Of a stretch of DNA of 64,000 bases, positions 6,968 to 9,900 are shown one piece after another. The stretch comes from Escherichia coli. GTDB lineage: Bacteria > Pseudomonadota > Gammaproteobacteria > Enterobacterales > Enterobacteriaceae. The notes beneath the pieces are model-generated. The model saw only the letters and a program-made list of their open reading frames with translations. It ran no database searches and was not told the origin of the DNA. Location of the stretch: the NCBI RefSeq assembly GCF_013315695.1, contig NZ_CP054353.1; one strand, given 5' to 3'. Each line of letters begins with the position of its first letter. The first letter of the stretch is position 1. The translations under genes were made by a program, and so were the position numbers.

Positions 6968-9900
6968 TCAGTTAATCGCGAAATAACTGCTATTCACCAG
7001 CAAATCCAGCGGTTGGGCATCGGCAATCACATCGCCATAAATCAGATCGACGCCGATGCCCGAAAGCGTATCCATCACTAAGGGTAAAACGACTGGCCCG
7101 GCGATGGTTTTCATCCCGAGTCGCTGAGCATGCCCCTGAATAATCGTAATCAGCATCTCATCCATCAAATTACCCTGCACGCTGGCGCATAACTCACCAT
7201 CAAGTAGCAGGTAATCTGCCATATTTGCTTTCAGCGAGTTGAAGATTTGCAGATCGCGGCCCACCTGACTGAATACGATCCGACATCCCGCCAGCCGCAG
7301 TTTTTGCACGCTTGCTGCGTGATCTAAAATCGCGTCTGCCGGAATAATCAGATGTAATAACCGTGGTGGTAGAGGGCTATTTTCCAGCTGCTCAATTAGT
7401 TCATTCACCAGCGTGGCGCTACTCAAACCGGCAACGGAAAGGGGGAGGGCGATGCTTAAGCCTTTACTGGCAATCGCTTTTGCGGCCTGCTGGAAAAAAT
7501 CGTGGAATACCCGTCGGTCAAGAGCATGGCTAAGTGCCGGATCGCTGAAGCTACGACGAAATGTTTGTTCATCAATAATCTCGCCTTCGCAACTCCAGAG
7601 CTTAAGTGAAATCAGCCACAAATTACGCGCTTGCGGGATCCGCGGCGAAGCGACACCGTGGGCGATCATCATCAACTGATTCTCTTTAATCATCCGCCTC
7701 TGTTCATCAAGCGATATCGCCGCCCGTTCGCTATGTGCGGCAGCTTGCTGCGGTTCGTAAACCGTCACCCGGCCCCGTCCACCATTTTTGGAGGCATAAC
7801 AGGCGATATCAGCCTGCGACATCACTTCAGCCGCCTGATGATTGTTGTCATCAATCAAGGTAATCCCGGCACTGGCACCTACCCGATGTACACGTCCTTC
7901 CCAGATAAAGTGATAGTCATTCACGGCGCTGATAATGCGTGTAGCGATAAAACGCGCACTTTCGACATTACAATCTGGCAGCAGCAGACCAAATTCATCG
8001 CCACCGAGTCGCGCCAGCACGTCGCTGGAGCGCAGCATACTCAGCATCAACGACGCCAGTTCGCGCAGTAAAGCGTCGCCCGCCGCATGCCCGGCGCTGT
8101 CATTCACCGCTTTAAAGCGATCAAGATCGATAAACACCAGGGCATGTCGCTGATGCGTACTGTTTACCGTTTGCAGCAGGATGCGTAGTTGCTTCTCAAA
8201 ACTGGCGCGATTGGCGAGATGCGTCAGTGCATCATGGGAGGCGCTGTAGCTCAGCTGGCGCAGCATTTTGCGTGATTCGGTGACGTCCTGAATCACCAGA
8301 ACCGAGCCTATATTGCTGCCGTCCAGAGTACTTAACGGCGTAATACTGTAATGCACGTCGTAGCTGCCGCCGCTTCGGCAGTGCAACACCACATCTTGTT
8401 CAATCGCGGAACGTGAGGTGTCGGCACTGTAAATGTTCTCCATTAATGGTCCGTTGTCGCCAAAAGTAATATGCAACACCGTCAGGAGCGGAACACCTAA
8501 CGCTTCTTCCTGCGTCCAGCCGCTCATCTTCTCCTTCTCCGCCACCGGATTCATAAAGGTAATTTTCATTGCCATATCAATACAGACCACGGCTTCGCCG
8601 ATGGAATCCAGCGTTATGTGCAGGCGCTCTTTTTCCTGAAACAATGCCTCGTTAAGCTGTTTCACTTCGGTCATATCCATATTAATGCCGAGCAGGCGTT
8701 CGACTTCGCCTTCTTTATTCAGTACCCGGTTAGCGAGGGCGCGGATATGGCGAATGCCGTCTTTCACGGTAATGCGAAATTCCAGTTTAAAGGGCGAGCG
8801 TGATTGCAACGAATCACGAATCACGAATCACTTTTTCGGCGTGTTGGCGATCTTCCGGCAGCACGCACTCGTACCACACCTGCCAGTTCGGTTTGATATG
8901 CGGAGGAATTTCATACAGCTCGAACATCCGCTTATCCCAGCTAAAAATATTCGGCTTCAGCTCCCACTCCCAGATGCCAATCCCGCCCGCTTCGTTAGCC
9001 AGCGTGATGCGCTCCATCAGTTGCTGATTCACCTGTTCGGTGCGTTTTAGCTCGTTAATGTCTTCAATCTGAGCGATAAAATAGAGCGGCGTGCCATCCG
9101 TGTGGCGCACCAGTGAGACGGCAAGCAACGCCCAGACAACATCGCCATTGCGGTTGTAGTAGCGTTTTTCCATTGAATAGGTGTTTATTTCACCGCTGAT
9201 CAGCTTTTCAACCTGTTGGAGATCTTTATTGAGATCCTCCGGCCAGGTCAGTTGCTGAAAGGTGAGTCCGCGCAGCTCTTCCTGACTGTAACCGAGAAAC
9301 TGGCAGAGTGCTTTGTTGGATTGCAGCCATTGCCCCTCGGTGCCCACTAATGCCATGCCGATGGCGGAATATTCCATGGCGTTACGAAAACGGGTTTCGC
9401 TTTCGGAAATGTGTTTGCGTTCCGCACGAAAGGCATACATCACCATGGTCATGATGTTGGCGGGCAGCAGGATCAGCAAAAACGGTAGCCACGGCATATG
9501 GCTCATCAGGTATGTACGCGGCGTAGCAAGCAGGGAGGGATCAGCGGCCATCATCAGTGACACCATCATCACCGTGGTAAGGAAGATCAAAAAGGCTTCC
9601 ATTCGTGGCAGGCGCACGGCGCTCCACATCAACAGCACAATAATGAAAGTAAAAGGCCACGGCAGATACAGCATCGAAAGCCAGCTTAACGTCAGTGTGA
9701 TGGCTAACGTGAGCAGCGACTCAAAAAGCAACCGTGGGTTGCGATGGCGCAGCAGATAGTGTGGTTTAAATAACAATCCCAGCGGCACCAGTGCCAGTGC
9801 GCCGATGGATTCTGACAGTACCCATATCAAAAATGCCCTGAGAGGATCGTCTCCGGGCGTCAGCAGGATAACCAGAACACCCCCTAACAGAGGTGGAACA

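Follow-up and report, generated by a model that had tools for sequence, protein, structure and literature searches.

Does the broken dgcE (yegE) gene in a sequenced stretch of Escherichia coli DNA represent a lasting loss of function, a reversible on/off switch, a gene split into two parts that retain some function, or an error of sequencing or assembly? We addressed this question for a 64,000-nucleotide stretch of contig NZ_CP054353.1 (RefSeq assembly GCF_013315695.1), hereafter called the window, in which the reading frame of dgcE is interrupted at three perfect tandem copies of the heptanucleotide GTGATTC. DgcE is the top-level cyclase of the PdeR-DgcM-MlrA-csgD cascade (PMC6510439). Our analysis indicates that the three-unit dgcE is likely a genuine, stably inherited loss-of-function allele derived from slippage, with a phenotype predicted from its sequence. 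The locus comprises the following features, given by their positions in the window.

8811..8831, minus strand: heptanucleotide tandem repeat (GTGATTC)x3, identified by reading the sequence, by Tandem Repeats Finder and by alignment to intact alleles
8814..10298, minus strand: upstream open reading frame (ORF) of 494 aa (MASE1, PAS1 and the first half of PAS2), taken from the ORF list, ending in EKVIRDS-stop (HAEKVIRDS)
6968..8824, minus strand: downstream ORF of 618 aa (second half of PAS2, PAS3, GGDEF and a degenerate EAL), taken from the ORF list
6968..10298, minus strand: dgcE (yegE) pseudogene of 3331 bp, identical to RefSeq features annotated as frameshifted

On the minus strand at 8831..8811, GCCGAAAAA (which ends in GAAAAA) is followed by the three GTGATTC units and then by GTTGCAATC (which starts with GTTGCA). 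Tandem Repeats Finder recovered the array at 8809-8831 with a period of 7, 3.3 copies and 100% matches, and the 14-mer GTGATTCGTGATTC was found once in the 64-kb window, at the dgcE site, with 0 occurrences expected from 100 dinucleotide-preserving shuffles. Wild-type dgcE (3318 bp, 1105 aa) holds two GTGATTC units, which encode V490-I-R-D-S494. We aligned the window gene to the dgcE of other E. coli genomes and found that it exceeds each of its close relatives by a heptamer, exactly one in the case of the intact alleles of ATCC 11775, MS 21-1 and AF14, corresponding to a +7 bp, +1 frame insertion at gene nucleotides 1468-1474. The frameshift generates the TGA that closes the 494-aa ORF, and in place of one uninterrupted frame of about 1105 aa the window gene has a stop after codon 494. 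The 618-aa ORF begins at the GTG of the second repeat unit with (V/M)IRDSLQSRSPF and covers native residues 490-1105 plus a two-residue EK insertion; it overlaps the 494-aa ORF by 11 nt, with VIRDS common to both. The inserted unit duplicates native codons, and so neither ORF contains anything but native DgcE sequence. Deleting one heptamer unit in silico yielded a single ORF of 1107 aa, and not 1105, since the EK duplication adds two residues. An earlier note, made from the letters of the window, had given the perfect triple repeat, the coordinates and junction residues of the two ORFs and a continuous ORF of about 1107 aa upon removal of one 7-bp unit, all of which our analysis reproduced.

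Pfam domains were assigned on the closest intact allele, that of ATCC 11775 (1105 aa), resulting in MASE1 (residues 19-294), PAS (303-416), PAS_3 (452-537), PAS (555-672), GGDEF (682-838) and EAL (898-1087), which is the DgcE-type order of MASE1, three PAS domains, GGDEF and a degenerate EAL. The window gene differs from this allele by two insertions (+7 bp and +6 bp) and one single-nucleotide polymorphism (SNP), and its second PAS domain (PAS_3, 452-537) is cut midway by the break after residue 494. Because the Pfam architecture of the intact relative spans both ORFs, these are contiguous halves of one DgcE; the earlier note had offered a lack of such contiguity as a reason to reject its proposal, and this objection fails. 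The gene order yegD-alkA-dgcE-udk-dcd-asmA, with dgcE between udk and alkA, was found in all fetched genomes, and the RefSeq Prokaryotic Genome Annotation Pipeline (PGAP) labels the identical allele as ‘dgcE, diguanylate cyclase, frameshifted’ (NZ_OZ547117.1, NZ_LR898874.1). Synteny, RefSeq annotation and Pfam architecture agree on the identity of the gene as dgcE.

Of 5413 complete E. coli genomes with a match to this region, only two contain the identical 401-bp stretch, AF3 (a blood isolate from the UK) and MSB1_4I (a rectal swab isolate from Australia), both annotated ‘dgcE, frameshifted’. Between the window and AF3 there is 1 SNP in 38.7 kb, and the window has no counterpart of the IS1 insertion sequence (IS) found in wcaM of AF3; between the window and MSB1_4I there are 3 SNPs in 50 kb. 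On the strength of these 1-3 SNPs over 38.7-50 kb we consider the window a third member of the AF3/MSB1_4I clone. Looking up exact protein sequences in the NCBI, ENA and Logan assemblies, we retrieved the 494-aa product from about 809 contigs (e.g. strains KTE69 and KTE143) and the 618-aa product, which includes EK, from 728 contigs. The best explanation is that the allele arose once, in an O1-antigen clone resembling extraintestinal pathogenic E. coli (ExPEC), and has been transmitted clonally since. Beyond asmA, the locus is followed by the colanic acid cluster, the O1 O-antigen cluster, gnd-ugd-wzzB and the his operon; because the O-antigen cluster (about 40970-51020) is annotated with O1-family wzx and wzy, the source strain is of predicted serogroup O1. 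Outside the clonal group, the closest strains are ExPEC of ST95 type (sequence type 95), at 99.2% over 25 kb, and from its nearest relatives and O1 O-antigen genes alone the clone appears to be B2/ExPEC-like. The IS1 of AF3 is an IS1A (38727-39494 in the AF3 stretch, at about 38718-38726 of the window) that splits its wcaM gene (colanic acid), which is intact in the window and in MSB1_4I, and AF3 has a private SNP in wzc (window position 18965).

To place this allele among the variants of the species, heptamer units were counted in the 5407 complete E. coli genomes holding the dgcE site, using 106-127-nt queries with which a one-unit difference costs more identity than plausible flanking SNPs. 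The unit numbers that depart from wild type were distributed as follows.

Three heptamer units: 4 of 5407 genomes, comprising the window clone (2 genomes), dog strain D10 and O111:H8 strain 8B
One heptamer unit: 110 of 5407 genomes, comprising the O26:H11/O111:H11 enterohaemorrhagic E. coli (EHEC) clade and other backgrounds
Four heptamer units: 0 of 5407 genomes, searched with a synthetic four-unit query

Two units were found in about 98% of genomes, the remaining approximately 5290 having been called two-unit from alignment length and not each genome individually. The three expansions are independent, because their backgrounds differ by 87-108 SNPs within dgcE, and the one in strain 8B (= DEC8B) was recovered in two separate sequencing projects. 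On the contraction side, the -7 bp frameshift of O26:H11 str. 11368 (NC_013361.1) leads to a stop at codon 507, and the 506-aa product of this O26:H11-type allele occurs on at least 1000 contigs. One unit is also found in EC7518, O176:H45 MIN9 and XJ5.2, whose dgcE genes lie 58-93 SNPs from each other and from O26. Whole-unit variation therefore runs in both directions (+7 bp in the window clone, D10 and O111:H8 8B; -7 bp in 11368, EC7518, MIN9 and XJ5.2), and the three expansion and four contraction backgrounds, 47-108 SNPs apart, amount to at least seven independent one-unit events, unless recombination has carried the site between backgrounds. Every inspected variant with one unit more or less is annotated as frameshifted.

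The perfect tandem repeat GTGATTCGTGATTCGT, which consists of two units with 16 nt of perfect periodicity, is already at the site in all intact alleles and is the longest perfect tandem repeat in wild-type dgcE; the window as a whole holds about 40 repeats with a unit of at least 6. The earlier note had called the two-copy form a natural slipped-strand site, and the independent gains and losses in at least seven dgcE backgrounds bear this out: the data support the dgcE heptamer as a natural, recurrent hotspot acting in both directions, with slippage as the probable mechanism. Variants were counted in 114 of 5407 genomes at dgcE. A single 2x7 repeat, in wcaI, served as the control and showed neither one-unit nor three-unit alleles among about 4450 genomes, a comparison in which mutation rate and selection are mixed. 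The excess at dgcE probably reflects tolerance of, or selection for, loss of dgcE as well as local mutability.

We propose the following course of events. During replication, the nascent and template strands would misalign by one heptamer at GTGATTCGTGATTCGT (Streisinger-type slipped-strand mispairing), and this misalignment would add or remove 7 bp, one unit having been added in the window clone. The +7 bp would have arisen on a dgcE copy that already carried the in-frame EK duplication, followed by clonal transmission. Translation would stop after residue 494, separating the membrane MASE1 input from the PAS3-GGDEF output, and the PdeR-DgcM-MlrA-csgD cascade, for which DgcE needs MASE1 and the PAS region, would not be activated. 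Slipped variants would then persist, loss of dgcE being tolerated or favoured in some host-associated lineages.

Published mutants bear on the predicted consequence. When either MASE1 or the PAS region is deleted on the chromosome, the strain is matrix-null, just as it is when dgcE itself is deleted, and in K-12 a DgcE that lacks MASE1 supports neither CsgD nor matrix, even if the inhibitory EAL has been taken out as well (PMC6510439). A natural dgcE allele, 1456delC, with a stop at codon 490 and located 12 nt upstream of the heptamer site, was described in curli-negative soil isolates, which regain curli when wild-type dgcE is supplied in trans (PMC6029578). Loss of function is the best reading of the three-unit allele because its break lies in the middle of PAS2, the 1456delC strains broken just upstream are curli-negative and MASE1-less DgcE is null. 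Since activation of the cascade depends on MASE1 as well as on the PAS region of DgcE, the curli and cellulose production driven by DgcE is expected to be lost or strongly reduced in the window clone. Inactivation of this gene is common in the species: dgcE is among the most often pseudogenised E. coli genes (PMC13322260), and its frequent pseudogenisation is also reported in PMC11327459, which cites Povolotsky and Hengge.

Four points weigh against this reading or limit it. The curli-negative 1456delC soil strains also carry PdeR E620K (PMC6029578). The dgcE of Shigella flexneri, which has a premature stop before GGDEF, still contributes cyclic di-GMP (c-di-GMP) (PMC11327459), so that a gene labelled as a pseudogene need not be fully inert. 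The downstream half of the window gene may be made by termination-reinitiation, because both ORFs are native sequence and overlap by 11 nt. Finally, what suggests selection for loss is one control site together with the recurrence of the variants.

Two other length changes in the same gene inform the history of the clone. They involve the following features.

8528..8540, minus strand: in-frame 6-bp tandem duplication inside PAS3, AEK to AEKEK (gene nucleotides 1759-1764), identified by alignment
8961..8972, minus strand: TGGGAGTGGGAG (W-E-W-E), a 2-copy tandem repeat in dgcE, identified by alignment

The 6-bp duplication GGAGAAGGAGAAG, on the coding strand, turns GCG GAG AAG ATG into GCG GAG AAG GAG AAG ATG; it is absent from the earlier note and is a clone-specific marker. 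In the sister lineage AF10/AF14, where PAS2 begins, TGGGAG is present three times in place of twice (WEWEWE for WEWE); the change is in frame and the gene, of 3324 bp, is intact, and the AF14-type protein of 1107 aa was found on 116 contigs. MS 21-1 has the ancestral 3318-bp dgcE. These three strains (MS 21-1, AF10 and AF14) are the nearest relatives, with 99.9% identity over 25 kb. We compared the 25 kb common to six genomes (the window, AF3, MSB1_4I, MS 21-1, AF10 and AF14), yielding 20 SNP sites and 4 indels. Although dgcE makes up 13% of this sequence, it holds none of the 20 SNPs and three of the four indels, all three being tandem duplications in the PAS region (p ~0.009 for at least three of four indels in 13% of the sequence, by a post hoc binomial test assuming uniform placement).

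Exact-sequence look-ups in public contigs retrieved an intact 1107-aa protein with EK and two heptamers from 20 contigs, and no frameshifted form without EK. By pairwise BLAST against the same six-genome set, three of these intact EK contigs agree with the window at all variable sites in some 20 kb, the 7 bp excepted, and carry all clone-specific markers. The simplest history would be EK duplication first, +7 bp second and clonal expansion third, and a reversion from three to two units would fit equally well; the 20 intact EK contigs may represent either the ancestor or revertants, the local SNPs being consistent with both. A second frameshift was observed in these genomes, in a RelE/ParE-family toxin gene beside a helix-turn-helix antitoxin gene (14138-14475, minus strand), which has a 1-bp deletion at about 14340 (an A run of A4 in the window vs A5 in MS 21-1, AF10 and AF14). 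This deletion is common to AF3, MSB1_4I and the EK genomes in which dgcE is intact, and is therefore older than the dgcE frameshift.

The alternatives to a stable null allele differ in how well they fit these data. An unlikely possibility is that the heptamer acts as a slow, selectable evolutionary fuse, with host-associated or pathogenic lineages repeatedly switching off DgcE and the three-unit state keeping a way back. If so, the 20 intact EK genomes would be revertants nested inside the frameshifted clone, and the three small PAS-region duplications in one ExPEC clonal group would reflect repeated selection on DgcE signalling, not chance. Rare reversion of the three-unit allele is possible.

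Phase variation in the strict sense, in which populations of the clone would keep both three-unit OFF and two-unit ON cells, appears quite improbable. Simple-sequence-repeat contingency loci of Haemophilus, Neisseria and Campylobacter have long tracts that change at about 1e-2 to 1e-5 per generation, with copy-number variation between sister colonies. Like them, the dgcE heptamer is intragenic, and because its 7 nt are not divisible by 3, its copy number toggles the frame. In favour of a switch, contraction of the three units would restore the perfect wild-type frame, the site slips in both directions across the species, and the same haplotype occurs as ON (EK, two units) on 20 contigs vs OFF on 728-809; the 20 could be revertants. 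Unlike the contingency loci, the dgcE tract has 2-3 units only, four having never been seen and no long hypermutable tract being present, about 98% of the 5407 genomes are at wild-type length, and variants are clonally stable, the three-unit allele being the same in UK and Australian isolates and in those of the KTE collection, which indicates stable inheritance. Moreover, the commonest variant (one unit, 110 genomes) cannot slip back because no repeat is left, and the 20 intact contigs are equally well explained as the ancestor, with EK first and the frameshift second. The short tract, the irreversible one-unit allele and the stability of the three-unit allele across continents together make fast phase variation unlikely. 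Of the two options that the earlier note had left side by side, a loss-of-function allele or a reversible switch, the first is thus the one that the data support, and the second, in its fast form, is not supported.

A split gene with residual or altered function, in which the C-terminal half would be translated alone as a soluble cyclase that no longer answers to MASE1/RdcAB or undergoes MASE1-dependent proteolysis, is likewise very doubtful. Its translation could start by reinitiation at GTG 8824, which overlaps the upstream stop, or at an internal ATG at about 8527. Both ORFs are clean and overlap, and the EK duplication turns GGAGAAG-ATG into GGAGAAGGAGAAG-ATG, creating an AAGGAG/GGAG Shine-Dalgarno-like motif before an in-frame ATG; however, only 3 nt separate the new AAGGAG from the ATG, we saw no convincing Shine-Dalgarno motif upstream of the GTG at 8824, and the duplication cannot be read as a rescue of the frameshift because EK is also present in intact genes. 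From the literature, several protein species arise from the dgcE pseudogene of S. flexneri, which also increases c-di-GMP (PMC11327459), and soluble MASE1-less DgcE dimerises better and escapes MASE1-dependent turnover; against this, the same MASE1-less form is null for CsgD and matrix in K-12 whether or not the EAL is removed, and an isolated GGDEF domain does not dimerise (PMC6510439). Fragments of the window protein would likely misfold, because the break halves a PAS fold and the internal ATG lies inside PAS3.

Two ways of reading through the break were considered and rejected. Programmed ribosomal frameshifting (+1 or -2) finds no slippery codon pairing in the +1 frame at the stop context UCG UGA U and no upstream Shine-Dalgarno stimulator, as judged by eye, and as a conserved arrangement it does not agree with a shifted form present in only 4 of 5407 genomes. 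For transcriptional slippage, the sequence shows a longest A run of 5 and no slippery motif. As to a sequencing or assembly artefact behind the third heptamer, also named in the earlier note as a ground for rejection and one that a single assembly can in principle never exclude, we found nothing in its favour and regard its probability as practically nil, since the same allele is present in two further complete genomes assembled independently by different laboratories and on some 730-810 public contigs, the three-unit allele of O111:H8 8B/DEC8B was also sequenced twice independently, and a gain of one perfect 7-nt unit is an atypical platform error; the break is real.

We compared the site with known systems. 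At the (CTGG)3 frameshift hotspot of E. coli lacI, reportedly described by Farabaugh, Schmeissner, Hofer and Miller in 1978, gains and losses of one unit are said to give frameshift nulls and to dominate the spontaneous spectrum. The dgcE heptamer resembles it as a short, perfect intragenic repeat with one-unit gain and loss in both directions and, by prediction, frameshift null alleles; it differs in its 7-nt unit, in its two wild-type copies and in that the evidence comes from population genomics (at least seven events, 5407 genomes) and not from laboratory spectra. The 1456delC allele (H486fs; Somorin et al. 2018, PMC6029578) is likewise natural and clonal, with its stop at codon 490 vs 495 here, whereas it is a single-base deletion 12 nt upstream, stands in the PdeR E620K background and comes from soil as opposed to human gut and blood. 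The degenerate dgcE of S. flexneri (PMC11327459) is also broken before GGDEF, with a downstream ORF that keeps an intact GGDEF, but its interruption is IS-linked, with a stop at residue 366, and residual c-di-GMP synthesis was shown in Shigella.

Slippage at short repeats, frequent dgcE pseudogenisation and the RefSeq frameshift flag are already known, and no new mechanism is put forward here. We found no description of a heptamer hotspot in dgcE in the searchable full-text literature on yegE/dgcE with O26, frameshift or pseudogene, a search that did not extend to the 2016 survey of Povolotsky and Hengge. That a single heptamer underlies the dgcE pseudogenes of the O26:H11 clade, the O1 clone and sporadic strains alike thus seems to be undescribed. 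Its one-unit form explains the broken gene throughout the O26:H11/O111:H11 EHEC clade and its three-unit form the broken gene of a much-sequenced O1 extraintestinal/commensal clone; several sporadic strains owe their pseudogene to the same repeat. This points to parallel loss of the DgcE signalling input in pathogen lineages. The copy number of GTGATTC at codon 490 offers a simple marker for predicting DgcE status from genomes. Given that DgcE is the top-level trigger of curli and cellulose, its loss would alter biofilm behaviour, adhesion and immune recognition of the bacterium.

Elsewhere in the window, between mdtA and yegL, we observed two direct copies, about 86% identical, at 408-653 and 733-988. 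They lie around the ibs type I toxin genes, ibsA and a second Ibs-family toxin.

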